Shown piece after piece: positions 6,630-64,000 of a stretch of DNA of 64,000 nt. Source of the stretch: Eubacteriales bacterium (GTDB lineage: Bacteria; Bacillota; Clostridia; Oscillospirales; CAG-272). Where the stretch lies: positions 50,109 to 114,108 of the forward strand of contig JAZQGU010000042.1 in assembly GCA_045540175.1 (NCBI GenBank), read 5' to 3'. The notes below the pieces were generated by a model. It saw nothing but the letters and a program-made list of their open reading frames with translations. It was not told the origin of the DNA and did no database searches. How positions within the stretch are numbered: position 1 is the first letter of the stretch; every line of letters begins with the position of its first letter. The translations under genes were made by a program, and so were the position numbers.

Positions 6630-6636
6630 AACCCTA

Positions 6637-48510: not shown

Positions 48511-48516
48511 CATTTT

Positions 48517-49251
48517 TCAGAATTTTCCGCCTCTTCCGCCTCCGCGCGAGCCGCCGCGTGAGCCGGAGCTCGTATCGGCACGCTTTACGCGGGTGATCGT
48601 GCGGTATAAGTACAGGTCGAGGTCCTTTGTCAGCATAAAGCTTCCCTGTCGGACGTAATTTGACGCCGTTCTTTGAGGACGGACGCTTTTGAGCTTACTT
48701 TTCATCGAATAGACAACGGCAAAAGACACTACCGCTCCTATAATAACGGCGATCAGCAGGCTTCCGAAAATATCAAACGAAAGCGCGCTGTCACACGCGT
48801 CGGCGTATGCCATAAAGCCGTCGTAAAACTCGTCGTCACCAAAATGAGGAAGCATTGCGTCCTCAAGCTCGTCAAGCTCGCTGTCTCCGAATTTATTCTC
48901 TGCTTCGCCATAGGTGTATATGTAATAATCTCTTGAGCTCATAGCAAGAAGCAAAAGGATTCCGCTTTTTTCTTTGCCGTAGCCTATACCGTTATTATGG
49001 TAATAGCCGTCGGCGTAGTAATACGGCGTTTTTGTTCCGAGGTCATCGATTATCACGATGACAAAGTGCATCTTATGCTCTTTGAAAAGTGCGATAAGCT
49101 TATTTGCTATTTGGTCTTCCTCGTAGTCTGACAGAACGTCTGCTTCGTCGACAACGGTATAAGGAGGCATTTCGGGGGATGCAAAGGAAATGATCGGCAT
49201 AATAAGCGACAAAATTATCGCAAATACCGTTATTATCAGTGATTTCTTCAT
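48517..49251 (-). CDS. TPM-domain (YgcG/YdjH-like) membrane protein with Gly/Arg-rich tail
   Basis: Signal/TM segment, TPM-like core (VVDEADVLSDYEEDQI...), a second TM helix, and a C-terminal SSGSRGGSRGGGRGGKF tail. Confidence 0.75.
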   Translation of the reverse strand: MKKSLIITVFAIILSLIMPIISFASPEMPPYTVVDEADVLSDYEEDQIANKLIALFKEHKMHFVIVIIDDLGTKTPYYYADGYYHNNGIGYGKEKSGILLLLAMSSRDYYIYTYGEAENKFGDSELDELEDAMLPHFGDDEFYDGFMAYADACDSALSFDIFGSLLIAVIIGAVVSFAVVYSMKSKLKSVRPQRTASNYVRQGSFMLTKDLDLYLYRTITRVKRADTSSGSRGGSRGGGRGGKF

Positions 49252-49264
49252 ATCCGCCACCGCC

Positions 49265-50347
49265 TCACATCAGCCACAACAGGTACAAAAGCGCCATTAC
49301 GGCGGCAGATATACCGGCAAACCAAAGGCTGAGATATGCAAAGAATGCCTTTTTATCCATTGGAAGATCACCGACGAATTTTCCCGTTTGACCGTTCATA
49401 GCAAAGACGTAATTTTTGCCTTTCCATTCGGTCGTCAAAAGCCACACGGGAAGAAGCGCGTAGCGTATCCTGCCCGATTTGGTCTTCACATAGGAGCGCT
49501 CGGGAACTACGGTAGCGTAGCCGACCGCCGTCGACATAAATGCGTTTTCCGTGCTTCTCTTTATGCGCTCGTTTGCTCTCGGCTGGCTTTGGTCCGACGT
49601 TACGTCGTATTTATCCGCAAGGAAGCCCGAGAGATACGCGGTCTTGAAGTCGACCGCTTCCGCGAAGTTATACGGCTCGATAGATTCCATCAAGGTATCG
49701 TCGAGCTTCTCCGAGCCGTCAACGGGGACGTTATCAAAGGATAGCATTCCCTCTCTGATAAGCGCGTAATGGCTCGTTTCGGTATACGTATAGTTACTGT
49801 CGCTCCAGAAACGCGTGCGTGTTGCGCGGTATCGAATCTTTGCGTCAGCATCTGTATCGAACAGCCAGAACGGCGCATATATACCCTTGACCTCATTTAT
49901 GCGGTTCTCATCCTTGAAGACCTTAGGAAGCAGCTTTTTGCCGCTCAAATGGCGCTTTAAGCCTTCTTTTGCTGCATTTTTATCGAGCTTAAAGGGAATG
50001 ACAAGGTCGGGCATAAGATCACCGCTCAGGTTTCCGACGAACACGACGGGGTTTCCGCAATATGGGCAAGAGGTTGCGGCGGTAACGTCCTCACAAACTA
50101 TTTCTCCGCCGCAGGAATTGCAGGAATAGACTGCCATTCCGTCGTCCTCGTTCCATTTATTGTCGCTCTCGGTTTTCCAGTCGAACTCGTCCTCTTTATC
50201 GTCAATACTGTCTTCCGCGAGGTTTTTTACGCTTTCAACGTCAAACTCTGTGTCGCAGTAGGGACATTTCATGTTCTGTCCCTCTGTATTAAACTCTAAT
50301 TTGCCGCCGCAGGACGGACATTTATATTCGAGAATTTCGTTTTCCAC
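49265..50347 (-). CDS. Double zinc-ribbon membrane protein (YdjG-like)
   Basis: CPSCG-x17-CPYC and CNSCG-x14-CPYCG ribbons, plus a C-terminal TM helix. GTG start after GGAG. Confidence 0.65.
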   Translation of the reverse strand: MENEILEYKCPSCGGKLEFNTEGQNMKCPYCDTEFDVESVKNLAEDSIDDKEDEFDWKTESDNKWNEDDGMAVYSCNSCGGEIVCEDVTAATSCPYCGNPVVFVGNLSGDLMPDLVIPFKLDKNAAKEGLKRHLSGKKLLPKVFKDENRINEVKGIYAPFWLFDTDADAKIRYRATRTRFWSDSNYTYTETSHYALIREGMLSFDNVPVDGSEKLDDTLMESIEPYNFAEAVDFKTAYLSGFLADKYDVTSDQSQPRANERIKRSTENAFMSTAVGYATVVPERSYVKTKSGRIRYALLPVWLLTTEWKGKNYVFAMNGQTGKFVGDLPMDKKAFFAYLSLWFAGISAAVMALLYLLWLM

Positions 50348-50363
50348 TTGTTACTCCGTGACG

Positions 50364-51662
50364 TCAGATCATATCGGATGAGTTAAAGGGGTCTCCGCAT
50401 TCGGGACAGAACTTGGGAGGATTTGATTTATCCTCAGGCTCCCAGCCGCACTTATTGCAACGGTAGGATGCTGACGGCTTCTTTGCTCCGCAGTTTGAGC
50501 AGAAATTGCCCTGATTTACGTTTCCGCAAGCACATTCCCAGCCGTTATCGGGCTTTTTTGAACCGCAATTTACGCAGAAGTTTCCGCTGTTTTCCTGTCC
50601 GCAGGTACATTTCCAGCCGTTTGCGGGAGTCGTCTTGGGGGCTGCTGCCTGCTGACTTTGACCCATTGCGAAAAGGTTGCCTGCGTTATTACCGCCCGCG
50701 TTCATCGCCATTCCCATACCGACAAAGCCGTTCATTGCGCCACCGTCGTTATTTGCCGCCGCCTTCATAGCGTCTGCCTGTGCGCCGACGAGAGTTGCCG
50801 CCGCCATAGTGGGATCGCGCATAATAGCAACGCGCTGTGCGTCCTGAATAAGCTTTTCCTCGTCCTCGGGAAGGGTTATCGGATTGAGAGCTATGCTCTT
50901 CACCTTAAGTCCGCGAAGGTCTGCCCATTTAGCGGAAAGGGCTTCGTTTATCGCATTTTCAAGCTCTGTAGTATATGCAACGATCTGATTCGGGCGTATA
51001 CCGAGAACCGAAAGCTTTGCAAGCGCGGGTGCAAGCGAGCTGATAAATTCCGTCTTAAGCTGTGTGTCGAGCTCACTTCTTCTGAATTCGCGCTCTACGT
51101 TTCCGCATACGTTCGTATAGAAAAGAAGCGGGTTTACGATGCAGTAGGAATAGATTCCCGAGCAACGGACGGACACATCGATATCAAGACCGATCTTATT
51201 GTCGACTACCCTGAAGGGAATCGGGTTCGGTGTTCCGAACTTATTATCATAAAGCTCCTTGGTGTTGAAATAGTAGACTCTCTGGTCCTTGGCGGTATCG
51301 CCGCCGAAGGTGAAACGTCTGCCTATAGTCTTGAAGGTATCAAGAATGCTCTGACCGAGATTACCGGCAAATATGCTCGGCTCGCTTGAGGTATCGTAGG
51401 TATACTGACCGGGCTCGGCACATACCTCAACCACCTTTCCCTGCTCGACGATCATCATGCACTGTCCGTCAGCAACAGCGATTCCCGAGCCGTTTGAAAT
51501 TACGTTATCGCTTCCCTTCTTATTTGAGGAGCGTCCGCTCGTCTTCTTCTGTCCCTTTACGACGAGAACGTCGCTTTCGAGCGCATCGCAATAGAAAAAC
51601 TCCTTCCACTGATCGGCAAGAGTGCTGCCGAGTGCGCCTATACCTGCTTTGATAAGTCCCAT
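50364..51662 (-). CDS. SPFH/band-7-like protein (YdjI-like) with triple C-terminal zinc-ribbon tail
   Basis: The N-terminal 330 aa resemble the YdjI ('virion core protein'-like) SPFH family. An A/G/M/N-rich linker follows. The C-terminus has three CxxC...CxxC units. Confidence 0.7.
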   Translation of the reverse strand: MGLIKAGIGALGSTLADQWKEFFYCDALESDVLVVKGQKKTSGRSSNKKGSDNVISNGSGIAVADGQCMMIVEQGKVVEVCAEPGQYTYDTSSEPSIFAGNLGQSILDTFKTIGRRFTFGGDTAKDQRVYYFNTKELYDNKFGTPNPIPFRVVDNKIGLDIDVSVRCSGIYSYCIVNPLLFYTNVCGNVEREFRRSELDTQLKTEFISSLAPALAKLSVLGIRPNQIVAYTTELENAINEALSAKWADLRGLKVKSIALNPITLPEDEEKLIQDAQRVAIMRDPTMAAATLVGAQADAMKAAANNDGGAMNGFVGMGMAMNAGGNNAGNLFAMGQSQQAAAPKTTPANGWKCTCGQENSGNFCVNCGSKKPDNGWECACGNVNQGNFCSNCGAKKPSASYRCNKCGWEPEDKSNPPKFCPECGDPFNSSDMI

Positions 51663-51879: not shown

Positions 51880-51909
51880 ATTTATTTTTTTATATATTTA
51901 TGATATAAT
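51880..51909 (+). promoter_or_regulatory. Candidate extended -10 promoter (TGATATAAT) for tdk operon
   Basis: TATAAT at 51904-51909 with an upstream TG. The -35 element is weak. Confidence 0.4.
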
Positions 51910-51939: not shown

Positions 51940-52521
51940 ATGGCTAAGCTCTATTTTAAGTACGGCGCGATGGGCTCATCAAAAACGGCACAGGCCCTTA
52001 TTACCAAATTTAATTACGAGGAGCGCTCGATGAAGGTTTGGCTTATCAAGCCCGCGATCGACAACCGCGACGGTGAGAGGATAATCCGTTCGAGAATAGG
52101 TCTGAGCGCCACCTGCGAGATAATTTTCGACGGCGAAAATATTTTTGACATTTTCGCATCAAGCCATTCCGACTGCGACGTTATCATCGCTGACGAGTGT
52201 CAGTTCTTCACAAGCGAGCACATTGATCAGCTTCGCAAGATAGTTGACGAGCTCAATATTCCCGTTATGTGCTTCGGTCTGCGTGCCGACTTTATGTGCA
52301 AGCTCTTTACGGGAAGCAAGCGTCTTTTTGAGCTTGCAGATTCGATATCAGAGATTAAGACGATCTGCTCCTGCGGTGCGAAGGCTACCGTAAACGCTCG
52401 TCTTGACGAGAATATGAACGTTGTCACCGAGGGCGCCCAGGTGCTTCTCGGCGGTAACGACCTTTATATAGCAATGTGCCACAAATGCTGGCAGGAAAAA
52501 ATCAGAAATCAAAACAAGTAA
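51940..52521 (+). CDS. tdk: Thymidine kinase
   Basis: GAMGSSKT P-loop, DECQFF, and a C-terminal C-x2-C...C-x2-C zinc site. Confidence 0.95.
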
Positions 52522-52543
52522 ACATACAAGCGAGGTAAAAACA

Positions 52544-53209
52544 ATGGAACTTTCAAAAATTCTTTCTAAATGCGATCATACTCTCCTCTCTCAGGGTGCT
52601 ACCTGGAATGAGATCAAGGCAATTTGCGACGACGGTATCAAATTCGGTACTGCGTCTGTATGTATTCCAGCTTCCTACGTTAAGCGTGCAAAGGAATACG
52701 TGGGCGACAAGCTTGCTATCTGCACCGTTATCGGCTTCCCGAACGGCTACTCGACTACCGCTACCAAGGTTTTTGAGTGCAAGGACGCACTTATGAACGG
52801 CGCTGACGAGATCGACACCGTTATCAATATAGGCGACCTCAAGGACTGCCGTTACGACGAAATTCTTAACGAGCTCAAGGCGCTTAAGGAAGCTTGCGGA
52901 GAGAAGATACTCAAGGTCATTATTGAGACCTGCCTTCTTACCGACGAGGAAAAGATCAAGATGTGTCAGATCGTAACCGAATCAGGCGCTGACTACATCA
53001 AGACCTCTACCGGATTCTCGACAGGCGGTGCTACCCGTGAGGATGTTAAGCTTTTCGCTGAAAACGTTGGCGAGGGCGTTAAGATCAAGGCTGCAGGCGG
53101 TATCGCTTCTCTTACCGACGCTGAGGATTTCATCAACCTCGGCGCAGACCGTCTCGGCACAAGCCGTATCGTGAAGATCGCAAAAAACGAGCAGCACAGC
53201 GGATATTAA
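52544..53209 (+). CDS. deoC: Deoxyribose-phosphate aldolase
   Basis: IDHTLL-type N-terminus (CDHTLL) and the Schiff-base lysine context DYIKTSTGF. Confidence 0.95.
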
Positions 53210-53233
53210 TTGAAAACACAGGAGAACAAAAAT

Positions 53234-53956
53234 ATGTCTAATAATCATACCCCTCATATTAAAGCTACCCCTGCGGATTTTGCAAAAACCGTTCTTATGC
53301 CGGGCGACCCGCTTCGTTCGAAGTTCGTTGCCGAGACATTCCTTGAAAATCCCGTACTCGTAAACAACGTGCGCGGTATTCAGGGCTACACGGGTACCTA
53401 CAAGGGCGTTCCCGTAAGCGTTATGGCAAGCGGTATGGGTATGCCGTCCATCGGTATATACTCCTACGAGCTTTACAATTTCTTCGGCGTTGAGAACATT
53501 ATCCGTATCGGCTCAGCAGGCGGTCTTGCCGAAAACGTACAGCTTCGTGATATTCTTATCGGAATGGGCGCTTGCACAAACTCTTCTTATCAGGAGCAGT
53601 ATAACCTCGGCGGAAACTTCGCTCCCATTGCAGACTTCGGGCTTCTCCGCAAGGCGGTAAACGAGGCGGAGGCGTTTGGAGTACGTTATCAGGTCGGTAA
53701 CCTTCTCTCCTCCGACGTCTTCTACAATGCGAATCCGTCCTTCAACGACGGCTGGCACCGCATGGGCGTTCTCGGCGTTGAAATGGAAGCTGCCGCCCTT
53801 TATATGAACGCGGCTTACGCGGGCAAAAAGGCACTCGCTATCTGCACCGTTTCCGATCACATCATAAGAGGCGAGGCACTTGACGCTGACGCGCGTCAGA
53901 GCACCTTTACCGACATGATGACTATTGCACTCAATATCGCGGCTTCCGAAAATTGA
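53234..53956 (+). CDS. deoD: Purine nucleoside phosphorylase, DeoD type
   Basis: TPHI.A...DFA..VLMPGDPLR, GMGMPSIGIYSYEL, VEMEAAALY. ATG at 53234 after AGGAG. Confidence 0.95.
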   Translation: MSNNHTPHIKATPADFAKTVLMPGDPLRSKFVAETFLENPVLVNNVRGIQGYTGTYKGVPVSVMASGMGMPSIGIYSYELYNFFGVENIIRIGSAGGLAENVQLRDILIGMGACTNSSYQEQYNLGGNFAPIADFGLLRKAVNEAEAFGVRYQVGNLLSSDVFYNANPSFNDGWHRMGVLGVEMEAAALYMNAAYAGKKALAICTVSDHIIRGEALDADARQSTFTDMMTIALNIAASEN

Positions 53957-53972
53957 TTTTTAGGGGTAATAT

Positions 53973-55214
53973 ATGCCTAAATACGAAGAAGTAAAAAAAG
54001 AAATTGCCGATCAGATCGAAAGAGCTAAAAGAGAGCACTGCTATCCCGGCACGGCGTTCCCCGATTCGGGAGCGATCCGCCGCCGTGACGTTGCGCGCGA
54101 CCGCGGAAGCGTTTGGCGCCCGACATTCGTTCACGACGTTGACAAGATAATGCATTGCCCTTACTACAACCGCTATTCCGATAAGACCCAGGTATTTTCT
54201 CTGACAAAAAACGACGATATTACAAGACGTGCTCTGCACGTTCAGCTCGTATCGCGCATTTCCCGCACCATCGGTGCGGCGCTTCACCTTAATCTTGACC
54301 TGATAGAAGCGATTTCCCTCGGTCACGATATAGGCCACACGCCCTTCGGTCACACGGGTGAGCATTATCTTGACGGGCTTTATAATTCTTACACGGGCCG
54401 TCATTTCTACCACAATATTCACTCTGTACGAGTTCTCGACGGAATATTCCCCTACAACATCAGTCTTCAGACGCTTAACGGCATTGCCGCGCACAACGGA
54501 GAAATTGAGGTTGAGGAATACCATCCGGTTCCAATATCGTCTTTTGACGAATTTGACAAGATGATCGAGCGTTGCTACTGCGATCCTGCGGCAGCCGCAG
54601 AGCTTATGCCCTGTACGCTTGAAGGAAGCGTAGTTCGTCTTGCCGATATTATTGCTTATCTCGGTAAAGACCGCCAGGACGCTATAATCCGTGCTAAGCT
54701 TGCAGACGAGAGCATGTTTATAAACGAGGAGATAGGCTCGATAAATTCCGAGATAATCAATAACCTCGTCGTAAACGTCATTGAAAGCAGCTACGGCAAG
54801 CCGTATATCAGTCTTGACGCAAAGCATTTCAAGGCATTAAGCAAATCTAAGATGGACAACTATGCCCGCATCTACAACCGCGCGGCGGCGCTTGCTCACC
54901 TTGATACTACAATCAAACCGATGATGGCGGAGATTTACGGACAGATGCTTGACGACCTCAAGAACGGCGTCAAGACCTCGCCGATCTTCACTCATCACAT
55001 TGACTACGTCAATGCAGTCTACTACAAGAAGCGCAAGATTCCTTACGAGAACAGCGAACCGAACCAGATCGTAGTTGACTACATTGCAAGTATGACTGAC
55101 AACTATTTTATCGAGCTTCACAATTACCTTTTCCCCGAAAGCGATCTGAAGGTCGAATATGCGGGCTACTTTGACGAGGAGCTTCGCGCAAGAGAGGAAA
55201 AGAAAAATGTTTGA
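53973..55214 (+). CDS. HD-domain dNTP triphosphohydrolase-like protein (dGTPase family)
   Basis: TRRALHVQLVS, LGHDIGHTPFGH and ADIIAYLGKD motifs. Confidence 0.8.
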   Translation: MPKYEEVKKEIADQIERAKREHCYPGTAFPDSGAIRRRDVARDRGSVWRPTFVHDVDKIMHCPYYNRYSDKTQVFSLTKNDDITRRALHVQLVSRISRTIGAALHLNLDLIEAISLGHDIGHTPFGHTGEHYLDGLYNSYTGRHFYHNIHSVRVLDGIFPYNISLQTLNGIAAHNGEIEVEEYHPVPISSFDEFDKMIERCYCDPAAAAELMPCTLEGSVVRLADIIAYLGKDRQDAIIRAKLADESMFINEEIGSINSEIINNLVVNVIESSYGKPYISLDAKHFKALSKSKMDNYARIYNRAAALAHLDTTIKPMMAEIYGQMLDDLKNGVKTSPIFTHHIDYVNAVYYKKRKIPYENSEPNQIVVDYIASMTDNYFIELHNYLFPESDLKVEYAGYFDEELRAREEKKNV

Positions 55215-56154
55215 TAAGATACTTGATTTAATTAAGAAATACCCCGTTATCGTTATTCACCGTCACAAGAATCCCGACGGTGACGCGCTCGGGAGCCAGA
55301 TCGGTCTTAAGCATATTATACGCGACAGTTTCCCTGACAAGACGGTTTATGCTGTCGGTGATATGACACCCAGATACGCTTTTATGGCTGACGAGCCGAT
55401 GGACGAGATCTCAGACGACGTTTACAGCGGCGCGCTCGCAATCGTCCTCGATACCTCTGCAAAAGCACTAATAAGCGACGAAAGATACACTCTCGCGCCC
55501 GAAAATGCGCGTTTTGACCATCACCTTTTCGTTGAAACGATATGTACCGAGGAGCACGTTGACACAAGTTTCGAAAGCTGTTGCGGTCTTATTGCTTCCT
55601 TTGCAAAGGAATGCTCTCTCACCGTCTCAGATACTGCCGCAAAGGCACTATACACGGGTATGGTCACTGATTCGGGACGCTTCCGTTATGATTCGACGAC
55701 CTCGCAGACCTTCGAGATGGCTTCTTTTCTTATGGAAAGAAAATTCGATACGAACGAGATCTTCAGAAATCTTTATACGGACGAGCTTTCGTCCATTCAG
55801 CTCCGTGCGTCCTTTACTCTTAAGATAAATATTGCAGAAAACGGAGTTGCCTACATATACACGACTCTCGACGAAGCAAAGAGCTACGGAGTTGACAATT
55901 TCACCATCTCGCGCGGAATGGTAAACACCATGGCGGAGATCAAGGGAATTGACCGTTGGGTCAATTTCACCGAAACGGATAGCGGTGTGCTTTGCGAGAT
56001 CCGTTCGTCAAAAATGAACATAAATCCCATTGCCGTTAAGTACGGCGGCGGAGGTCATAAGAAGGCAAGCGGTGCTACGCTCAAGGACAAAAATGAGGCG
56101 ATGGCGCTCCTTTCTGACCTTATTTCCCTATCGGAGGACAATAATGAAGCTTGA
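55207..56154 (+). CDS. nrnA: DHH/DHHA1 phosphoesterase, NrnA-like (paralog 1)
   Basis: HRHKNPDGDALGS, DHH (FDHH) and a C-terminal GGGHKKASG motif. Overlaps the previous gene by 8 nt. Confidence 0.8.
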   Translation: MFDKILDLIKKYPVIVIHRHKNPDGDALGSQIGLKHIIRDSFPDKTVYAVGDMTPRYAFMADEPMDEISDDVYSGALAIVLDTSAKALISDERYTLAPENARFDHHLFVETICTEEHVDTSFESCCGLIASFAKECSLTVSDTAAKALYTGMVTDSGRFRYDSTTSQTFEMASFLMERKFDTNEIFRNLYTDELSSIQLRASFTLKINIAENGVAYIYTTLDEAKSYGVDNFTISRGMVNTMAEIKGIDRWVNFTETDSGVLCEIRSSKMNINPIAVKYGGGGHKKASGATLKDKNEAMALLSDLISLSEDNNEA

Positions 56155-57124
56155 AAATATGACTGCTATACTTAACAAAATAAAGGAATATGATTCTATC
56201 GTCATATTCCGCCACAAGCGCCCCGACGGTGACGCGGTCGGGTCAACAAAAGGACTTCAGAGAATTTTGCGTCTCTCCTTCCCCGAAAAGACGATTCTGC
56301 TTTCGAACGCCGATTATTCCGATTACGTAAGCTTTCTCGGTGAGGAGGACGGCGTTATTTCCGACGACGTTCTCGGCAAGTCACTCGGAATCGTTATAGA
56401 TACCGCGACGACCGACAGAATTTCCGACAAGCGTTTTAATCTCTGCCATGAGCTTATCAAGATCGACCATCACATCAGCGTCGATAATTACGGAGATCCT
56501 TCCTGGGTCGTTGAGGAAAAGTCGTCGTCCTGTGAGATGATCGCGGAGTTTTACTATGCTTTCCGCGATGAGCTTAAAATCGACACCGAAGCCGCTACCT
56601 ATATTTACGCCGGAATGGTTACCGACTCGGGCCGATTCCGTTTCCGTTCGGTTTCGGGAGATACGATGAGATATGCAGGCATGCTTCTCGATCTAGGCGT
56701 TGACACAGATCATCTTTACGCGAACCTTTATATGAAGGATTTTCACGAGTTCAAGTTCCACGGCTACGTTCTTGACAACATCAAGATAACGGAAAACGGC
56801 GTGACTTACGTCGTTATTACTGCCGAAACGCGCAAGGAATTCGGTCTTACCTATGAGGAAGCAAGCGCGTGTGTTTCTTATATGGATTCTATCAAGAATT
56901 CGCTTATCTGGATCGCGTTCATTGAAGCCGATGACGGCGAGATCAGAGTTCGTCTGCGCTCGCGCTTCGTTACCGTAAACGAGATCGCGGAAAACTACCG
57001 CGGCGGCGGTCACGACTGTGCAAGCGGTGCGACTGTTTACAACAATGATGAGATCACAGCACTTCTCAGCGAAGCCGATGCTCGTCTGCGCGATTACAAG
57101 GAAAATAACGAGGGCTGGTTATGA
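56144..57124 (+). CDS. DHH/DHHA1 phosphoesterase, NrnA-like (paralog 2)
   Basis: FRHKRPDGDAVGS, IDHH and GGGHDCASG. Overlaps paralog 1 by 11 nt. Confidence 0.8.
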   Translation: MKLENMTAILNKIKEYDSIVIFRHKRPDGDAVGSTKGLQRILRLSFPEKTILLSNADYSDYVSFLGEEDGVISDDVLGKSLGIVIDTATTDRISDKRFNLCHELIKIDHHISVDNYGDPSWVVEEKSSSCEMIAEFYYAFRDELKIDTEAATYIYAGMVTDSGRFRFRSVSGDTMRYAGMLLDLGVDTDHLYANLYMKDFHEFKFHGYVLDNIKITENGVTYVVITAETRKEFGLTYEEASACVSYMDSIKNSLIWIAFIEADDGEIRVRLRSRFVTVNEIAENYRGGGHDCASGATVYNNDEITALLSEADARLRDYKENNEGWL

Positions 57125-57837
57125 AAATACTTATTGTAAACGACGACAGTATGTCGTCCCCCGCGCTTCCCCATCTTGTTCATTGGGCAAGAACTCGCGG
57201 TGAGGTAACCGTCGTTGTTCCTAAGGTCGAGCAGAGCGGAATGAGTCAGTCGCTTGAGTTTGTAAAGCCTGTTGCACTTTCAAAGGAATATATTGCCGAC
57301 GATATTGAGGTATATGCTCTCGATTCTACGCCTGCAGACTGCGTTCGATACGGAGTGACAGGACTTAAAACTAAATACGATCTTATTATTTCAGGTATCA
57401 ACAAGGGGTATAACCTTGGAGACGATATTGCATATTCGGGTACTGTCGGAGCGATCCTTGAAGGCTCGCGTCTCGGTATCAAGGGCATTGCACTTTCTGC
57501 CGGTCATGATAGATTTGTCACTGCTGCCGAGGAGCTTGACCGCATCTTCGATTACGTTCTCGAAAAGGATCTCCTATCAAATGGTGATCTCTACAACATT
57601 AATATTCCGCATGAGATCAAGGGCTTCAAGATCACGAAGCAAGGCGGCGAATTCTACACCGACGAGTTTATCGACTGCGGTGACGGAACGGTACTTCAGA
57701 CGGGCAACCCCGTTGAACGCGAATTTAACGATCTGACTGTCGATATTGACGCGGTAAGAAACGGTTACGTTTCTATTACGCCGATAACGGCTTGTAAGAC
57801 CGACCTTGCGGTTTTTGAAAACATTAAAGACATATAA
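57121..57837 (+). CDS. surE: 5'/3'-nucleotidase SurE
   Basis: MKILIVNDDS N-terminus, GINKGYNLGDDIAYSGTVGA. Overlaps the previous gene by 4 nt. Confidence 0.9.
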   Translation: MKILIVNDDSMSSPALPHLVHWARTRGEVTVVVPKVEQSGMSQSLEFVKPVALSKEYIADDIEVYALDSTPADCVRYGVTGLKTKYDLIISGINKGYNLGDDIAYSGTVGAILEGSRLGIKGIALSAGHDRFVTAAEELDRIFDYVLEKDLLSNGDLYNINIPHEIKGFKITKQGGEFYTDEFIDCGDGTVLQTGNPVEREFNDLTVDIDAVRNGYVSITPITACKTDLAVFENIKDI

Positions 57838-57845
57838 CAAAACGA

Positions 57846-57873
57846 AAAGCACCGAGTGATCGGTGCTTTTTTA
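57846..57873 (+). terminator. Intrinsic terminator of tdk-surE operon
   Basis: AAAGCACCGA-GTGA-TCGGTGCTTT followed by TTTAAT. Confidence 0.8.
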
Positions 57874-57876
57874 ATA

Positions 57877-57927
57877 TACCCTCTCCGTCGGCTGCGCCGA
57901 CACCTCTCCCAAAGGGCGAGGCGTGAT
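57877..57927. repeat. GC-rich hairpin-containing intergenic element (CCCTCTCC-GTCGGC-TGC-GCCGAC-ACCTCTCCC-AAA-GGGCGAGG)
   Basis: Read directly between two convergent terminators. It is stylistically similar to the hairpins flanking the DUF559 gene. Confidence 0.5.
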
Positions 57928-57957
57928 AAAAGAAAAGACTCCCGAGGGAGTCTTTTC
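57925..57957 (-). terminator. Intrinsic terminator of ABC/nuclease operon
   Basis: GACTCC-CGAG-GGAGTC extended by A/T pairs. On the minus strand it is followed by TTTTCTTTTATC. Confidence 0.7.
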
Positions 57958-57975
57958 GATTTTACCGTGAATTGA

Positions 57976-59142
57976 TTAAGCAGCAGTTACGCTCTTAAGA
58001 GTACCCTGGTTAACCTGTACCTTGCCCTTGTATGCGGAAACAGGACCTTCAACAGTGATGGTGTCGCCAACCTTGATGGTGTCAGCACCGTCGCCCTTAA
58101 GACGGAAGCACTGGAACGCCTTACCCTCAACGTCGATGGTAACGGTTACGTTCTTATAATCAGCACTGTACTCAGTGTCGATAGAGGTGATAGTACCGGT
58201 AAGAGTGTACTGGTGTCCGCCGGAGAGAAGAGCGTTGTCAGCGAGCTTTGCAGCTTCGTCGTAGATCTCAGCGATAGTATCGTAGATAACTACTTCGTCA
58301 GCGGGCTGAAGCTTTGCAACGTTTTCCTTAGTGATGAGGTTACCGGGGAACTGGGTTACGCCGGTAGTATCGGGCTTCATATAAGAGCCTTCAGAGATAC
58401 AGAAGGTATTGAAGGAGCTGTAGGTGCCGAGAACGTACTCGCCGCCGCTGATCATGGTGAACCATGCCTTGCAGTCTGCCTTGTAGTACCAAACGGTGCC
58501 TTCTGCTGCGTCATACTTAAGACGCTTGGAGGTGCCATCCTGGAGGTATGCGAGAACGTAGGACTTAACGCCGTCGATCATGGTGTAGAACTTGTAGCCG
58601 CCTTCTACCTTTTCAGCGAAGAAGTCGGGAGCTGCATTTACGTCTTCAGTAGTCGCATAGTACTTGCCGCCGCTGATTTCATGAGTAGCAAAGAGGTTCT
58701 TACCGCCGAGGTTGCCCTGGGTAAGCATAAGCTTGAATGCGGTTTCTGCTGCGGGCTCAGACTCGTAAGGATCGAAGATGATTACGGGAAGAGTAAGGTT
58801 GAATTCCTTAGTCTTGCTCTGCTTGCCCATCTTAACGGTTGCCTTAAGAACGTAAGCAGCCTCAGTATCGTTTACGTCCGGAACGTCGATCTTAACCATC
58901 TTGCCGTCCTTTACGACCTTGATAGCATCGTTGCTGACGGTCCAGGTTACGGTTACGTCCTTGTCGCCGACCTTAACGTTTCCAACGAGCTCGTAGTCAG
59001 CAGGGGTTCTGTTCATGTCCTTGTAGAGGTTAGTAAGAATGGAGATAGCAGAATCAAGATTCTTGCTATTGTCCTCACCGCCACAAGCTACCATGCCGAA
59101 GCAGCAAATTACTGCCAGGATAAGTGCGAGAAGCTTTTTCAT
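57976..59142 (-). CDS. Lipoprotein of unknown function with OB-fold-like C-terminus
   Basis: Lipobox MVAC|GG. The C-terminus YTLTGTITSID...VTVTIDVEGKAFQCFRLKG....IKVGDTITVEG resembles tRNA_anti-type OB barrels (inference). Confidence 0.55.
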   Translation of the reverse strand: MKKLLALILAVICCFGMVACGGEDNSKNLDSAISILTNLYKDMNRTPADYELVGNVKVGDKDVTVTWTVSNDAIKVVKDGKMVKIDVPDVNDTEAAYVLKATVKMGKQSKTKEFNLTLPVIIFDPYESEPAAETAFKLMLTQGNLGGKNLFATHEISGGKYYATTEDVNAAPDFFAEKVEGGYKFYTMIDGVKSYVLAYLQDGTSKRLKYDAAEGTVWYYKADCKAWFTMISGGEYVLGTYSSFNTFCISEGSYMKPDTTGVTQFPGNLITKENVAKLQPADEVVIYDTIAEIYDEAAKLADNALLSGGHQYTLTGTITSIDTEYSADYKNVTVTIDVEGKAFQCFRLKGDGADTIKVGDTITVEGPVSAYKGKVQVNQGTLKSVTAA

Positions 59143-59185
59143 TGTGATTTCTCCTTGTATATTTATATTATTTTGGAATCAATGT

Positions 59186-60538
59186 TCAGTGTACTACCAC
59201 GTCGTTTACCGAGAAGAGCTTGATCTGATAATCGTCAGAGAAGAATGTGATAATGCCCTTAACGTCGATCGTTTTGCCCATGAAGTAATCCTCGGTTATA
59301 AGCTCGTTATTGTCGTTGTATAGAACTATGGTACGAACCTGAACCGATTTACCGTCGGGGGTAGTACAGGTAAGAGTGATAGCACCCTTGGAGGAGCTGT
59401 CCTCTTTAGTTGTAGTATAGCAGTCTGTAACGACGAGTCCCTTCATTTCGATCGTGGTATCGAGCGCGAGAGCTGCAAACTTTACAGTCTTAGGCTCTGC
59501 GTCCTCAATCTCAACCGTAACGTCGGACTTATAGGTTTCGCCGTCAACAAGCTTGAATGCGGGAGCGTGACCGGTGCTGATAAGTTTAAGGTTATTCGGG
59601 TTATTGGGTCTCATTGCCGAATACTCAACGCCCGATACCTGATAGTACCCGCCTGTCTCGTAGTAGGTTACAGTTCCGACTATGCGAACACGGTTTCCTA
59701 CGTTGAGAATTTCAAGTCCGTCGCCTACGAGGCCGTAGCCGTAGTAAACGGAGATACCGTAATAAAGACCTGTTTCCTCGTCGTATTCCTCGATGTATGC
59801 AGTATTGCTGCTGTTCATCGTAACGACGCCCTCAAATGCTACCTTTGCGTTATCGTATTCGGTAACGTTGACGCGAAGCTCTTTAAGAGTTATTTCTGCC
59901 GCTTCTCCATATGGGAAGAGCGGGTCTTTTTCGGTAGAATGGGAATGAAGCGCTTCCCTCTTAGCCTGTGCGATCGCTTCCATACAGGTATCTCCGTAAC
60001 GGTTGTTAGCGGAATTGGACGCGATTGCGAGACCGAGCTGAAGTATTTCGATATTGAGGTTACGGTAAGTATCGCTGTCTGCGGTCTTATACCAGACCCA
60101 AACGAGATATCTTCCGCCTGTGGAATCGGCGTTCCACTTATTGTCGTCGCTCTCAATAACGATAGAAGTAGCGTTCTTAAGCGTATTTTTCGTATATTCC
60201 GCCGCGGTCTTGCCCCAAGGCTCGATCTTACCGGTTGATTCGGGGGTATTTATTGCAAGGTATCTTGCTTTAAGAACTCCGCCCGGCATAACGGATTCGG
60301 GAACGTTGAAATGTGTTGTGTCACCGTCTATATATGCGTGTACGGTAACCTCTTGCTTAAGGGTTGCGCTTGACGCCATATCAAGCTTGACGGAAGCGGC
60401 ATAGTCCTTGTGCTCGTTCTTCGGCTCTTTGCCGCCGTCATTCTTGCCTACGCAGGACACGCAAGCAAGGACGACAGTTACGATAACGAGCGCAAGCGCC
60501 GTAATTTTCGTAATATTCTTTATGAATCTTTTATTCAT
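59186..60538 (-). CDS. Secreted/lipid-anchored thermonuclease (SNase) family nuclease with about 270-aa C-terminal extension
   Basis: IDGDTTHF, ARYLAINTPES and GGRYLVWVW match the staphylococcal nuclease catalytic and Ca-site pattern (DGDT / R..DTPE / R). LAC|VSC lipobox-like N-terminus. Confidence 0.8.
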   Translation of the reverse strand: MNKRFIKNITKITALALVIVTVVLACVSCVGKNDGGKEPKNEHKDYAASVKLDMASSATLKQEVTVHAYIDGDTTHFNVPESVMPGGVLKARYLAINTPESTGKIEPWGKTAAEYTKNTLKNATSIVIESDDNKWNADSTGGRYLVWVWYKTADSDTYRNLNIEILQLGLAIASNSANNRYGDTCMEAIAQAKREALHSHSTEKDPLFPYGEAAEITLKELRVNVTEYDNAKVAFEGVVTMNSSNTAYIEEYDEETGLYYGISVYYGYGLVGDGLEILNVGNRVRIVGTVTYYETGGYYQVSGVEYSAMRPNNPNNLKLISTGHAPAFKLVDGETYKSDVTVEIEDAEPKTVKFAALALDTTIEMKGLVVTDCYTTTKEDSSSKGAITLTCTTPDGKSVQVRTIVLYNDNNELITEDYFMGKTIDVKGIITFFSDDYQIKLFSVNDVVVH

Positions 60539-60544
60539 AGAAAT

Positions 60545-61984
60545 TTACTTACCTATCTGGTAATTACATTCTTTTACAGCCTTAGCAAACTCATCCTTAA
60601 GCTTTGCATCAACCTCGGAATCCTTCCAGTTCGCAACGAGACAGGTCTGAATAAGGTATCCAACCTGGTCACGGGCAACGGAAGAACCGTTGAATGCGGG
60701 AGAGGTGTAGTATGCGTGCTGCTGTTCAAGACAGATCTTTGCAGAGAGAGCCGCGATGCGGTCGCCGCCGTCAGCCTTGTTAAGGAAGTCAGCGTATACG
60801 GGATGTGCCTCAACGCTCTTGATTACCGGAACGTAACCGGATACCATAGAGAACTCAGCCTGGAACTCAACGGTAGTTGTGAGGTACTTAACGAAGAGCC
60901 AAGAAGCGAGGACTTCCTGAGGATCTGCCTTCTTGAAGATGCAGAGAGAAGGACCCTGGGAGATAACCTTGGGGTTATCAGCGTTCACCTGAGGAATGGT
61001 TGCGATGCCTACGTCGAAGGGATACTTTCCGTTTACCTTTTCGGGGCGCTGGTGAGTAGCACCTGCAGAAGAACCGATAGACATATAGCTGTTACCCTCA
61101 TCGGAGGAAGCCATAGTGAAGAGCTCGGAGGTATAACCGCCGGAGATCTCCTGAGTGGTTACGTAACCAAGCTTGTACCACTCTCTGAACTCCTTAACGA
61201 AGTTTCTGTTGGTCTCATTGTTGAAGAGGAAGTTGTTTTTGCCGGTAGCGGTGGTGTAATCGGAGCCGAGCTGTTCGCACATGGTGATAAACCAGTTGGA
61301 CTCGGAGTCGTAGCCGAGCGGGATACAGTCGGGATCGATTGCCTTGATCTGTGCGCAGAGAGCTTTCAGCTCGTCCCAAGTCTTGGGAACCTGGAGGTTG
61401 TTAGCTTCGAAGAAGGTCTTATTGTAGTAGAGGACCTCGGTAGACTTCGAGAGAGGAAGAGTATACATCTTGCCGTCGCCGAACTGCATACCTTCTTCAT
61501 AGTAACCCTTGATGAAGTCGTCCTTCTGAGCCTGGGTAAGTCCGACCACGGTCTCGTTGCCGAGAGCATCCTTAACGGTCTTATCAGCGTCGATGAGAAC
61601 GTCGAGAGTCTGTACTGCCTTGGACATGTTGTAAAGAGCAACGTGGTCGGGATAGCAGTATGCGATGTTAGGCTGGTTGCCAACGGTGATTTCGGTAGAG
61701 ATGGTCTTACGAACGTCATCGTAGCTACCTACCTGCTCGTGCTCGATAGTGATATTCGGATAGAGCTTATTGAACTCCTTGATATACACATCGAGAACTT
61801 CACGAAGGTTTGCACCCATCGTGTGATAGAAGGTGATCGTTACCTTTTTGGAGGTATCGAAGCCGTTTTCCGGCATTACGAAGTCGGGCGCTACCTTGTT
61901 CTTATTGCAGGAGAAGAGCGTGAGCATACTCGAAAGCATTGCAACAACGAGGAGCACCGAGATGAGAATTTTTCTGAGTTTCAC
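60545..61984 (-). CDS. ABC transporter extracellular solute-binding lipoprotein (family 1, CUT1-type)
   Basis: Lipobox LFSC|N. 479 aa with a typical SBP_bac_1 layout. The stop is 6 nt before the nuclease start. Confidence 0.85.
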   Translation of the reverse strand: MKLRKILISVLLVVAMLSSMLTLFSCNKNKVAPDFVMPENGFDTSKKVTITFYHTMGANLREVLDVYIKEFNKLYPNITIEHEQVGSYDDVRKTISTEITVGNQPNIAYCYPDHVALYNMSKAVQTLDVLIDADKTVKDALGNETVVGLTQAQKDDFIKGYYEEGMQFGDGKMYTLPLSKSTEVLYYNKTFFEANNLQVPKTWDELKALCAQIKAIDPDCIPLGYDSESNWFITMCEQLGSDYTTATGKNNFLFNNETNRNFVKEFREWYKLGYVTTQEISGGYTSELFTMASSDEGNSYMSIGSSAGATHQRPEKVNGKYPFDVGIATIPQVNADNPKVISQGPSLCIFKKADPQEVLASWLFVKYLTTTVEFQAEFSMVSGYVPVIKSVEAHPVYADFLNKADGGDRIAALSAKICLEQQHAYYTSPAFNGSSVARDQVGYLIQTCLVANWKDSEVDAKLKDEFAKAVKECNYQIGK

Positions 61985-62037
61985 GGTAAAAAATTCCTTT
62001 CTGTTATTGTTTTATATGATATCGGTTTCCCGAATTA

Positions 62038-62931
62038 TCAACCCTTGATACCGCTGCGGGATACACCCTTCATGATGTACTTGCGGAGGAAAAGGAATAC
62101 GAGGAAGAGAGGGAGAGATACGAGCGCAACTGCTGCCATCTGCACGGGGAAATTCGTATCGCCCGATGCATCTGTGTATGCGTTACGCAGACCGTTCGTT
62201 ATAAGCTCCATCTCAGCGCTCTTGGTAACGAGGTTAGGCCACATATAGGAGTTCCATGCACCCATCATCTTAAGGATCGTGATCGAGATAAGAGTCGGAA
62301 GTGCGAGGGGGATCATAACCTTCCAAAGATACTTGATATCGCTCGTTCCGTCGACCTTTGCGGCAAGATACAGCTCGTTTGGTATCTGCAGGAAGTTCTG
62401 ACGGAGGAGGTAGATATAGAAGATGCTTACAAGGAAGGGTACGATAAGTACCGTATAGGTATCCATCCAGCCGAATTCATTTACGGTCTGGTAGTTCGTA
62501 ATCGTAAAGAGCTCACCGGGGATCATCATCGTTGCAAGGAGTGCTGCAAAGAGCGCGTTTTTACCCTTGAACTCAAGGCGAGCAAATGCAAACGCCGAGA
62601 GGACCGTTATAACAAGGGAAAGAAGCGTAGAAACTACACCTACTATTACGGTGTTCTTAAAGAGCGTTCCAAGGTTTGCCGCGTCGAATGCTTCGACATA
62701 GTTATGCCAAAGGATTTCTCTCGGGAAGAGGGTCGGAACGGAGAGCTTATACTCGGAAAGTGATTTGAGCGAAGATATTATCATCCAGTAGAATGGGAAG
62801 AGGACGATTATTGCGATAAAGAAAAGGAATAAATAGGTGAGCGTTTTGGTGAAGATTTTAGTAACCTTCTGAGCGGCACTTACCTTTTTGAGGTCTTTTT
62901 CCTGAAGGGTAACGTTCATATTATCTGCCAT
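62038..62931 (-). CDS. CUT1-type ABC transporter permease (MalG/UgpE-like)
   Basis: 6 TM segments and the EAA loop LYLAAKVDGTSDIKYLWKVMIPLALP. Confidence 0.9.
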   Translation of the reverse strand: MADNMNVTLQEKDLKKVSAAQKVTKIFTKTLTYLFLFFIAIIVLFPFYWMIISSLKSLSEYKLSVPTLFPREILWHNYVEAFDAANLGTLFKNTVIVGVVSTLLSLVITVLSAFAFARLEFKGKNALFAALLATMMIPGELFTITNYQTVNEFGWMDTYTVLIVPFLVSIFYIYLLRQNFLQIPNELYLAAKVDGTSDIKYLWKVMIPLALPTLISITILKMMGAWNSYMWPNLVTKSAEMELITNGLRNAYTDASGDTNFPVQMAAVALVSLPLFLVFLFLRKYIMKGVSRSGIKG

Positions 62932-62944
62932 TTCGTTTCCCTCC

Positions 62945-63886
62945 TTAATAATGCGTCTTCTTCTTGCTTACTGCAAGGTTGATAAGCGTAACAACAAAGA
63001 TTATACCGAAGAGTATTAGTGCCGCCGCACTTGCTCTTCCCTGCTGGGTGTCGATCGCGTCGTAGATAAATCCGACCATGGTGTTAAGCCGTCCTGCGTC
63101 GCCGGTCGGTCCCATATCTTCGCCGAATATACCGACGATGCTCGAGTATTCCTTGAATCCGCCTATAAAGCCCGTGATAACAACGTATGCGATCATCGGA
63201 GAAAGGAGCGGAACGGTAATTTTGGAGAATACACGGAAACGGCTTGTACCGTCTACCTTTGCGGCGTCGTAGTACTGCTTGTTTACACTCTGAAGTCCTC
63301 CGAGAAGGATGAGTATCTTAAACGGAAGCGCGTTCCATACGATGTATATCGTCATAACCGTGATGTTAGCCCAATAAGAGGAGCCTGCGTTTATCCAGTT
63401 TACAGGATCTCCGCCAAAGAACTCTATTACGTTATTGATTATACCCGCCGTGATAACAAGCTCGTTTTCGTTACCGAAATTGTTTCCGACCATGTTGAAC
63501 ATTGCCGCAAAGACCATACCGATAGCGATAGAGTTGGTTACATACGGAAGGAAGTATATCGTCTGAAGGAATCTGGAGAGAGGTCCTATCGAGTTAAGAC
63601 ATACTGCGATAACGAGTGCGAGGATCGTCGAGATCGGCACGGTAAGTACGCAGAGAAGAATCGTATTGAACAGACAGTCCTTAAAATAGTCGTATTCAAT
63701 AACTTTCGCAAAGTTATCAAAGCCGTAATCGAACTGATGTCCGACATTTGCAAGTGCCTGGTTATATCCTTCCTGAACTGACATATGAAGTGTGTTAAAG
63801 ATAGGCCACACCGTGAATACCAGCAGAAGGATGATGGCCGGTAACAGGTACAGCCATGCTTTCCACTTATGTTTGCTTTCTACCAT
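62945..63886 (-). CDS. CUT1-type ABC transporter permease (MalF/UgpA-like)
   Basis: 6 TM segments and the EAA loop YYDAAKVDGTSRFRVFSKITVPLLSP. Confidence 0.9.
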   Translation of the reverse strand: MVESKHKWKAWLYLLPAIILLLVFTVWPIFNTLHMSVQEGYNQALANVGHQFDYGFDNFAKVIEYDYFKDCLFNTILLCVLTVPISTILALVIAVCLNSIGPLSRFLQTIYFLPYVTNSIAIGMVFAAMFNMVGNNFGNENELVITAGIINNVIEFFGGDPVNWINAGSSYWANITVMTIYIVWNALPFKILILLGGLQSVNKQYYDAAKVDGTSRFRVFSKITVPLLSPMIAYVVITGFIGGFKEYSSIVGIFGEDMGPTGDAGRLNTMVGFIYDAIDTQQGRASAAALILFGIIFVVTLINLAVSKKKTHY

Positions 63887-63897
63887 ATCACGTCACC

Positions 63898-64000
63898 TCA
63901 GAAGTAAATACGGTTCTCGTCTTCTTTGGAGAAGAGGAATACCTTGTGGGGCTTGAGGGAGAATGTGACGGTTTCGCCCATTTCAACCTTGTTATCAGAG
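63898..64000 (-). CDS. 3' end of a CDS entering from the window edge. The C-terminus resembles a MsmX/UgpC/MalK-type ABC ATPase
   Basis: Translation ...SDNKVEMGETVTFSLKPHKVFLFSKEDENRIYF*. The stop is 11 nt before the permease start. Confidence 0.5.
   Translation of the reverse strand, partial: SDNKVEMGETVTFSLKPHKVFLFSKEDENRIYF

Follow-up and report, generated by a model that had tools for sequence, protein, structure and literature searches.

We analyzed a stretch of 64,000 nucleotides (nt) from contig JAZQGU010000042.1 of an Eubacteriales bacterium (hereafter the window) and found that the region from 51940 to 64000 contains two convergent operons (Table 1). The operon on the minus strand encodes an ATP-binding cassette (ABC) importer of the sugar-type CUT1 family, together with a nuclease of the staphylococcal nuclease (SNase) family and a lipoprotein predicted to contain an OB fold. 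The operon on the plus strand encodes enzymes that act on nucleotides and deoxyribose. Together, the two operons probably form a locus for using extracellular nucleic acid.

The genes of the minus-strand operon are closely spaced. From permease 1 through the OB-fold lipoprotein, successive complete genes are 13, 53, 6, and 43 nt apart. A first-pass annotation, made from the sequence alone, had described this operon, and we found all five of its complete open reading frames (ORFs) and the end of the ATPase gene in the order, on the strand, and at the coordinates it gave. The 6-nt gap between the binding protein and nuclease genes and the final gap of 43 nt were as it reported. It had also placed a terminator at 57925-57957. 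There is a strong terminator-like hairpin there, but its span is shorter (Table 1). No terminator-like hairpin was found in any intergenic gap of this operon, and the total number of terminator-like sites was within that expected from shuffled sequence. A promoter scan detected no sigma-70-like site on the minus strand, although such a scan may mean little for this organism. That is, neither kind of signal was called between the binding protein and nuclease genes, a separation that the first-pass annotation had proposed checking for. Searches with Rfam found no riboswitch or leader within the locus. Based on the spacing and the lack of predicted promoters and of predicted terminators in the gaps, these genes may be co-transcribed.

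Only the 3' end of the ATPase gene is in the window. Its translation ends in SDNKVEMGETVTFSLKPHKVFLFSKEDENRIYF, just before the stop codon, and agrees with the C-terminus of the 363-amino acid (aa) ATPases from four related loci (L004-L007; see below). The ortholog in L005 has ABC_tran, OB_MalK, CysA_C, and TOBE_2 domains. The transporter has the composition typical of CUT1 (TC 3.A.1.1), with two permeases, an SBP_bac_1/SBP_bac_8 protein, and a MalK-type ATPase with OB_MalK/TOBE domains. The top NCBIfam models for the permeases include UgpA, MalF, UgpE, and GlcU. The best match for permease 1 was UgpA (3e-20, far under the cutoff) and that for permease 2 was UgpE (3e-32, under the cutoff).

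The binding protein, the nuclease, and the OB-fold lipoprotein all have lipoprotein signal peptides, so each is predicted to be tethered at the membrane surface. The lipobox cysteines of all three are conserved across relatives. The nuclease had been described earlier as secreted. Its lipoprotein signal peptide and invariant Cys29 indicate that it is tethered and not freely released.

The plus-strand operon begins with a thymidine kinase gene, upstream of which is an extended -10-like sequence, TGATATAAT (51901-51909). With the starts of both NrnA-like genes re-set, the genes of this operon overlap or are 0-22 nt apart. None of the seven translations has a signal peptide. The two NrnA-like proteins and the HD protein clearly belong to their families, even with scores under the curated cutoffs. 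In copy b of the NrnA-like proteins, the DHH and GGGH motifs are intact. The hairpin at the end of the operon is probably its terminator. The spacer between the two convergent terminators (57871-57931) has short inverted repeats that are rich in GC (CCTCGCCC..GGGAGAGG and GTCGGC..GCCGAC).

Table 1. Genes and terminator-like hairpins of the two convergent operons, in order of position in the window.
Feature	Position	Strand	Evidence or detail
Thymidine kinase, first gene of its operon	51940..52521	+	NF003300, 232 bits (cutoff 195)
DeoC deoxyribose-phosphate aldolase	52544..53209	+	TIGR00126, 232 bits (cutoff 117)
DeoD-type purine nucleoside phosphorylase, start codon uncertain	53210..53956	+	NF004489, 339 bits (cutoff 230)
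HD-domain dGTP-triphosphohydrolase-like protein	53973..55214	+	HD, HD_assoc; dGTPase models to 4e-54, under cutoffs
NrnA-like DHH/DHHA1 oligonucleotidase / pAp phosphatase, copy a	55207..56154	+	NrnA model 2e-69, under cutoff
NrnA-like DHH/DHHA1 oligonucleotidase / pAp phosphatase, copy b	56144..57124	+	NrnA model 4e-72, under equivalog cutoff
SurE 5'/3'-nucleotidase, cytoplasmic	57121..57837	+	PF01975 4e-48; TIGR00087, 160 bits (cutoff 135)
Second hairpin, flanked by A and T runs	57845..57870		between the convergent operons
Intrinsic-terminator-like hairpin closing the ABC-nuclease operon	57932..57957	-	11-bp stem, 4-nt loop, T run
OB-fold surface lipoprotein, 388 aa, lipobox MVAC (Cys20)	57976..59142	-	aBig_2 4e-6, weak PF01336
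Lipoprotein SNase-family nuclease, 450 aa	59186..60538	-	PF00565 1e-9
Lipoprotein solute-binding protein, UgpB/U3GBP-like, 479 aa, lipobox ...LFSC	60545..61984	-	SBP_bac_8 1e-38
CUT1 permease 2, UgpE/MalG-like, 297 aa	62038..62931	-	BPD_transp_1 (PF00528) 6e-17
CUT1 permease 1, UgpA/MalF-like, 313 aa	62945..63886	-	BPD_transp_1 (PF00528) 9e-19
MalK/UgpC-type ABC ATPase, 3' end	63898..64000	-	last 33 codons and stop; remainder outside the window

The arrangement of the minus-strand operon is conserved. A search for the nuclease family gave 6890 of 8000 scored candidates with E <= 0.001, and a scan of one genome per species gave at least 583 confirmed nuclease relatives, some of them in genomes labelled Anaerotruncus, Agathobacter, Ruminococcus, and Faecalimonas. 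To compare neighborhoods we used the best 80 of these (at least 583) species-representative loci, called their ORFs, and compared these with the proteins of the window. The nucleases in the 80 loci are 53-90% identical to that of the window. Flanking genes were identified with a fixed BLAST query set of 16 proteins and not by full annotation, and the denominators 59, 74, and 75 given below are the numbers of loci with enough contig for the feature in question.

Genes for an RDD-family protein, the ATPase, two permeases, and the binding protein precede the nuclease gene in 59 of 59 loci. The binding protein gene directly adjoins the nuclease gene in 73 of 74, with gaps of -50 to +64 nt and frequent overlaps, and so the absence of the nuclease from this position in relatives, which had been suggested as a check on the annotation, was not what we found. 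An OB-fold protein follows the nuclease in 72 of 75 loci. The layout is identical in the metagenome contigs L001 and L002. The RDD-family membrane protein (PF06271; L001 4710-5498) is encoded by the first gene of the operon in all 59 loci, and is a constant partner of the module; in the contig that contains the window, its gene lies beyond 64000. Because it recurs in nearly all of the 80 species-representative genomes, the arrangement is far beyond chance. In two loci (L050 and L060), a paralogous CUT1 set of two permeases and a binding protein (532-540 aa) is directly upstream of the RDD gene, and in L060 a thymidine kinase gene lies between this set and the module.

The link to nucleotide enzymes also recurs. 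The genes for SurE and both NrnA-like proteins are found within 10 kb downstream of the nuclease gene in 36 of 52 genomes, mostly in convergent orientation. Genes for the HD protein, thymidine kinase, DeoC, and DeoD recur in closer relatives, and those for the last three are beside the locus in L005-L009 and L031. Approximately 15 of the 80 loci have an additional gene between those for the OB-fold protein and SurE, encoding a protein of ~400 aa with a signal peptide (L001 13732-14961; L002 14500-15693). This gene is absent from the window. In L001 its product has a Big_2 domain and a weak match (E 0.003) to the barnase/T1-type 'Ribonuclease' family, and this product may act on RNA as a second enzyme at the surface.

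Most of the hosts are uncultured Clostridia from animal or human gut (Oscillospiraceae, Lachnospiraceae, Faecousia, and Acutalibacteraceae). The minority includes a few genomes labelled Bacilli, one 'Mollicutes bacterium', and three Spirochaetes. The Spirochaete loci (L070, L072, and L075; Sphaerochaetaceae and Spirochaetales from horse faeces and buffalo rumen) contain the whole module, with nuclease identities of 54-59%. This suggests horizontal transfer across phyla in gut communities, with binning error as a possible alternative.

The nuclease of the window is probably enzymatically active. It consists of a signal peptide with the lipobox Cys29, a flexible tether (residues ~27-45), the SNase domain (~58-201), and two predicted OB folds, OB1 (~229-303) and OB2 (~362-449). 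PF00565 matched with 39 bits (cutoff 21). An AlphaFold (AF2) model of the protein had a mean predicted local distance difference test (pLDDT) score of 86, and Foldseek aligned this model to S. aureus nuclease with template modeling (TM) scores of 0.80-0.85 and a root-mean-square deviation of 2.5-3 Å. A phmmer search of the PDB with the nuclease alone gave nothing at 1e-5, and a family profile was needed for the alignment of residues. With that profile, the Ca2+ ligands Asp21 and Thr41 of S. aureus nuclease correspond to D73 and T98, and its catalytic residues Arg35, Glu43, and Arg87 to R92, E100, and R143, all of which are invariant throughout the nuclease family.

The first-pass annotation had suggested OB-like barrels in both the C-terminal extension of the nuclease and the trailing lipoprotein, and three lines of evidence agree with it. 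The AF2 model of the nuclease has two five-strand barrels C-terminal to the SNase domain, and units with the order beta1-3, helix, beta4-5 are found at residues 232-302 and 362-441 of the nuclease and 311-386 of the lipoprotein. PF01336 matched 30 of 49 nuclease relatives (best 2.5e-6), in the last barrel where coordinates were checked (P0077 and P0100), and 24 of 54 relatives of the lipoprotein (best 2.8e-15). In addition, hhalign aligned the C-terminal domain of the lipoprotein with OB1 of the nuclease (probability 73%, E 3e-5). Foldseek results for the nuclease were swamped by staphylococcal nuclease entries, and its C-terminal domains were assessed by Pfam matches to relatives and by hhalign. 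The model of the lipoprotein (AF2 mean pLDDT 89.6) has an Ig-like aBig_2 domain (~50-118), a beta-rich middle domain of unassigned fold (~136-271), and the C-terminal OB fold (~311-386). Foldseek comparison of the whole model with the PDB gave OB matches to RPA, CST, KARS, and HIN, plus lysenin. These results support the presence of OB folds in both proteins, and the predicted OB domains would bind nucleic acid. The size of the OB partner varies widely across loci L004-L083 (231 to 2544 aa), as do its numbers of OB, Ig-like, and other domains, and the partner encoded in the window is among the shortest. It looks like a surface capture protein under rapid modular evolution.

We found that the binding protein resembles proteins that bind phosphate esters. 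In addition to SBP_bac_8, it matched SBP_bac_1 (1.5e-26). Its best matches in the PDB were 7C0F and related entries (ten sequence variants of one 406-aa protein; E 6e-19, 71 bits), followed by E. coli UgpB (E 2e-13, 53 bits). Binders of manno-, chito-, and malto-oligosaccharides were weaker matches (<=46 bits). Thus, the binding protein is not closest to oligosaccharide binders, a point that the first-pass annotation had left to be checked. A supplementary table in PMC12718374 lists 7C0F as the uridylyl-3'-5'-phosphoguanosine (U3G, UpG)-binding protein of T. thermophilus (here U3GBP), and that paper cites Chandravanshi, Samanta & Kanaujia (FEBS J 2021) for the solved structure of a CUT1 dinucleotide-binding protein. 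The earlier statement that CUT1 systems are not known for DNA breakdown products is therefore not supported.

PMC12718374 describes two Tyr and two Ser as phosphate-coordinating residues that are strictly conserved among UgpB, the glycerophosphocholine (GPC) binder, and the U3G binder; glucose binders do not share this conservation. We aligned 76 orthologs of the window's binding protein with E. coli UgpB and the 7C0F fragment (Table 2). U3GBP and the window's binding protein have in common the phosphate-coordinating Tyr and Ser residues, Ala and Phe in place of the Trp clamp, and a Gln (Gln276 and Gln343, respectively) that is not present in UgpB. The point mutants of U3GBP that have been deposited (Y58F, S129A, T242A, and Q276A) map to the conserved Y88, S181, S305, and Q343, and the residues at these sites may contact the ligand. 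The window's binding protein differs from U3GBP in that it is a lipoprotein, is ~70 aa longer, and is 27% identical. It lacks the features of UgpB proper, namely Glu66 and the Trp169/Trp172 clamp. In its residues, it looks like a phosphate-ester binder with a larger pocket than that of UgpB, and not like a sugar binder.

Table 2. Ligand-binding positions of UgpB and U3GBP and the corresponding residues in 76 orthologs of the window's binding protein.
Role	E. coli UgpB	U3GBP (7C0F)	Window family
Phosphate ligand	Y42	Y58	Y88, 70/76 (Trp in 6)
Phosphate ligand	S121	S129	S181, 76/76
Phosphate ligand	S247/S248	T242/S243	S305/S306, 76/76
Phosphate ligand	Y323	Tyr of GY motif	Y384, 76/76
Conserved Arg	R374	outside aligned fragment	R438, 76/76
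Glycerol ligand	E66	Glu	Pro, 76/76
Trp clamp	W169	Ala	Ala or Ser, 65/76; otherwise Gly or Asp
Trp clamp	W172	Phe	Phe, 76/76
U3GBP mutant site	Gly	Q276	Q343, 76/76

We estimate a probability of roughly 0.7 that the two operons serve the use of extracellular nucleic acid, by capture and cutting at the cell surface, import of phosphorylated fragments through the CUT1 transporter, and breakdown in the cytoplasm. The functional reading in the first-pass annotation, that the importer takes up products of the nuclease, is well supported, though indirectly, by the binding protein, by synteny, and by the convergent nucleotide operon; the order TK-DeoC-DeoD-HD-NrnA-NrnA-SurE (TK, thymidine kinase) strengthens the case for uptake of nucleic acid. 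Nucleases of the micrococcal type are known to leave mono-, di-, and oligonucleotides with a 3'-phosphate. Substrates of NrnA are 2-5-mers, which it cleaves, and pAp, from which it takes the 3'-phosphate; SurE acts on both 3'- and 5'-nucleotides. These activities of NrnA and SurE are the ones needed if the products of an SNase enter the cell still phosphorylated.

The products, the cargo, and the division of labor among the cytoplasmic enzymes would then be as follows. Extracellular DNA or RNA would be held at the membrane surface by the OB-fold lipoprotein and by both OB folds of the nuclease, and the tethered SNase domain would cut it there into mono-, di-, and short oligonucleotides with 3'-phosphates. 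These phosphate esters would be collected by the UgpB/U3GBP-like binding protein and delivered to the importer, made of two permeases and the MalK-type ATPase. In the cytoplasm, the two NrnA-type DHH enzymes would cleave short oligonucleotides and strip 3'-phosphates, and SurE would dephosphorylate 3'- and 5'-nucleotides. DeoD would free bases and deoxyribose-1-phosphate, DeoC would send deoxyribose-5-phosphate to glycolysis, and thymidine kinase would salvage thymidine.

Several points weigh against this interpretation. Every functional step is inferred; what the analysis shows is gene content and order, conservation, folds, conservation of catalytic residues, and the relatedness of the binding protein to other proteins. 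For the binding protein, identity is only 27% with U3GBP and 24% with UgpB. Because the background identity is that low, the U3GBP-like residue matches are suggestive, not proof. The binding protein is also far under every NCBIfam equivalog cutoff (65.6 bits for UgpB, compared to a cutoff of 411). The precedent for dinucleotide binding is soft, because the dinucleotide in U3GBP reportedly came from the expression host, and glycerol-3-phosphate (G3P) and GPC are said to bind tightly as well. In the nuclease, Asp40, a Ca2+ ligand of staphylococcal nuclease, is replaced by Asn97, which is invariant, and so metal dependence or activity could differ. For the OB-fold lipoprotein of the window, the match to PF01336 is below threshold (E 0.009), and the call comes from its relatives and the model. 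Its whole-model Foldseek TM scores are low (0.15-0.26 on the query) because the model is multi-domain, and this is weak support for an OB fold. The NrnA genes are not within 10 kb in 15 of 52 loci, nor is that for SurE in 16 of 52, and both NrnA and SurE are housekeeping enzymes of RNA turnover. Lastly, the transport model proposed for the related operons of mycoplasmas, described below, has a cargo that is unproven.

It is possible that this is an ordinary Ugp-type importer of G3P or glycerophosphodiesters, and that the nuclease and OB-fold protein have a separate role, such as phosphate scavenging or remodeling of matrix DNA. The transporter family and subunit set are those of E. coli UgpBAEC; the best-scoring NCBIfam models for the binding protein and the two permeases are UgpB, UgpA, and UgpE; UgpB and the window's binding protein have the phosphate-coordinating Tyr and Ser in common; and U3GBP itself is reported to bind G3P and GPC. 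We think that this is quite unlikely. All of the Ugp matches are far under the equivalog cutoffs (65 bits versus 411 in the case of UgpB), and the glycerol-binding Glu66 is replaced by Pro and the Trp clamp is gone in 76 of 76 orthologs. No UgpQ-type glycerophosphodiesterase was found among the conserved flanking genes of the 80 loci with the 16-protein query set. The partners are a nuclease and an OB-fold protein, the junction between binding protein and nuclease is kept in 73 of 74 loci, often with overlapping genes, and the products of the catabolic genes nearby have nucleotides and deoxyribose as substrates and not glycerol. A sugar or oligosaccharide importer, accompanied by a nuclease that only removes extracellular DNA (to disperse biofilms, to reach polysaccharide, or for defense) and does not feed the transporter, is very improbable in our estimation. 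No glycoside hydrolase is conserved inside the module (80 loci, same query set), although there are glycoside hydrolase genes near the locus in L001 and L002; the conserved neighbors are nucleotide-processing enzymes. Likewise, the SBP_bac_1/8 family is dominated by sugar binders, and most CUT1 systems carry sugars, but the oligosaccharide binders among the weaker PDB matches of this protein reach at most 46 bits, compared to 71 and 53 for the two phosphate-ester binders, and the phosphate-ligand residues reportedly absent from glucose binders are invariant in the window family apart from position 88 (Table 2).

A further alternative keeps the harvest of nucleic acid but has the fragments dephosphorylated outside, with nucleosides or free phosphate as cargo and with NrnA and SurE used for internal RNA turnover. 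In the schemes for extracellular DNA use by Shewanella, Vibrio, and Izemoplasmatales (PMC8289736 for the last), nucleotidases act outside and nucleosides, bases, and phosphate are imported. DeoD, DeoC, and thymidine kinase, all encoded here, act on nucleosides. However, genes for an extracellular nucleotidase or phosphatase are missing from the conserved module of the 80 loci, there is no signal peptide on SurE or on either NrnA copy, and the binding protein keeps its phosphate-binding constellation. In addition, the nucleoside ABC importers that we know of belong to the CUT2/Bmp type and not to CUT1. Import of dephosphorylated products is therefore improbable. We also considered and rejected two other roles. 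One was competence or transformation, as long DNA cannot go through an ABC importer that works with a binding protein. The other was escape from host DNA traps; the closest carriers are from colon, rectum, caecum, rumen, and faeces, and we assume that they are commensals and not pathogens.

A narrower form of the preferred interpretation, use of extracellular nucleic acid, is that the core of this compact locus is a dedicated importer of 3'-phosphorylated di- and short oligonucleotides, with phosphorylated fragments crossing the membrane intact. This proposal is tentative, and we rate its chances as somewhat below even. If so, this importer would be used by hundreds of species of gut and rumen Clostridia and, through transfer, by some Bacilli and Spirochaetes. 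The modular OB surface proteins would be capture antennae, and the two NrnA paralogs, each specialized, would together with SurE resolve 3'-phosphate ends in the cytoplasm.

The cluster is a widespread, uncharacterized example of a system already proposed elsewhere. The first-pass annotation was not aware of a characterized system of this kind, and its suggestion of novelty is not supported, since related operons of mycoplasmas and loci of Izemoplasmatales have been published. In Mycoplasma agalactiae, the SNase MAG_5040 is encoded between the SBP-like lipoprotein P80 (SBP, solute-binding protein) and a sugar-type ABC transporter, the genes are co-transcribed, and the same model was proposed (PMC3585158). 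The homologous genes of M. bovis have been termed a putative nucleotide transporter operon, and reviews have generalized the model to mhp379, Mpn133, MG_186, and MHO_0730 (PMC9740415, PMC12115388). PMC3585158, PMC4045577, and PMC9740415 place the SNase lipoproteins mhp379, MAG_5040, MGA_0676, and Mpn133 in sugar-type ABC operons, and the other lipoprotein of these operons is described there as SBP-like or polynucleotide-binding (P80/MAG_5030 of M. agalactiae and MslA of M. gallisepticum).

The mollicute operons and the window's operon have in common a surface SNase lipoprotein, an SBP-like lipoprotein (modeled as a sugar binder in mollicutes), a lipoprotein that binds nucleic acid (predicted in the case of the window), and a sugar-type ABC importer, and the proposed logic is to bind, cut, and import precursors. 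The window's binding protein also has a sub-threshold match to the NCBIfam mycoplasma model 'P68 family surface lipoprotein' (2e-9, 36 bits, cutoff 200). In contrast to the window, the lipoprotein and nuclease genes of mollicutes are upstream of the ABC genes and not downstream. The window's cluster also differs in having two C-terminal OB folds on the nuclease, an OB-fold partner, an RDD gene at its head, and a linked nucleotide/deoxyribose operon. Its hosts are walled, free-living Clostridia of gut and rumen, whereas the mollicute hosts are parasites. In M. genitalium, MG186-MG189 are followed by MG190, which we take to be a DHH phosphoesterase. If this is true, the linkage of nuclease, ABC transporter, and NrnA extends to minimal genomes.

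The 'DNA-degradation loci' of Izemoplasmatales (Wasmund et al. 2021, PMC8289736), along with those of Xianfuyuplasma (PMC8397711) and the nucleic-acid-degradation locus of Hujiaoplasma (PMC10470597), are seen as DNA analogues of polysaccharide-utilization loci, and cultured strains grow on DNA (PMC8289736, PMC8397711, PMC10470597). Their parts recall those of the locus here, with extracellular nucleases including a thermonuclease, ABC transporters, phosphohydrolases or NrnA, and a large nucleic-acid-binding protein side by side. They have more than one nuclease, as well as EddB and a transporter for phosphate (Pst), and transporters for nucleosides or bases were assumed by those who described them. 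In contrast, the Clostridial module has only one SNase and a compact, fixed layout, and the likeness is one of described parts.

The first-pass annotation had also drawn a parallel to YhcR of B. subtilis. The parallel holds for the combination of OB-fold and SNase domains in a cell-surface nuclease, and one relative of the OB-fold lipoprotein carries the COG name YhcR. It does not extend to the 5'-nucleotidase domain of YhcR: neither the window's nuclease nor any of 49 relatives matched a 5'-nucleotidase or metallophosphatase domain. In addition, the window's nuclease has a lipid anchor (a lipobox and no LPXTG) in place of sortase attachment, and its OB folds follow the SNase domain, whereas those of YhcR precede it. 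To our knowledge, YhcR is not encoded in an operon with an ABC importer.

Elsewhere in the window, genes on the minus strand upstream of the thymidine kinase operon (45720-51662) encode an extracytoplasmic function (ECF)-type sigma factor, a zf-HC2 anti-sigma factor, an acyltransferase_3 protein, and TPM-domain, zinc-ribbon, and SPFH/Band 7 proteins, and show no evident connection to the nucleic-acid locus. Rfam matched the window at only two places, a T-box leader (6636-6848, plus strand, 135.6 bits) and a tRNA gene (42251-42323, plus strand), both unrelated. We take two long antisense ORFs to be shadow ORFs; one is opposite the binding protein and permease genes (60410-62248, plus strand, 612 aa), the other opposite the HD gene (53931-54827, minus strand, 298 aa).

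In the literature that we searched, several features appear to be new. These are a fixed Clostridial gene order that begins with the RDD gene, a nuclease extended by two OB folds, an OB partner of modular build, a binding protein with U3GBP-like traits, and a conserved association with surE and two NrnA genes.

Gut and rumen contents are rich in DNA and RNA, and the use of these by the dominant Clostridia is largely unknown. The module described here is a testable candidate for a route. The clostridial version could also reveal the cargo of the nuclease-linked ABC transporters of mycoplasmas, which has been in question since 2007. Unlike the mycoplasma proteins, those of Clostridia can be expressed in E. 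coli without correction of UGA codons. The solved relative of the binding protein, a CUT1 protein able to hold a dinucleotide, has one bound in its structure, which makes the family tractable. We know of no organism in which intact import of phosphorylated nucleic-acid fragments through a sugar-type ABC transporter has been demonstrated. If such fragments are in fact imported by these bacteria, then the view that nucleotides must be dephosphorylated outside the cell would need to be revised for them.

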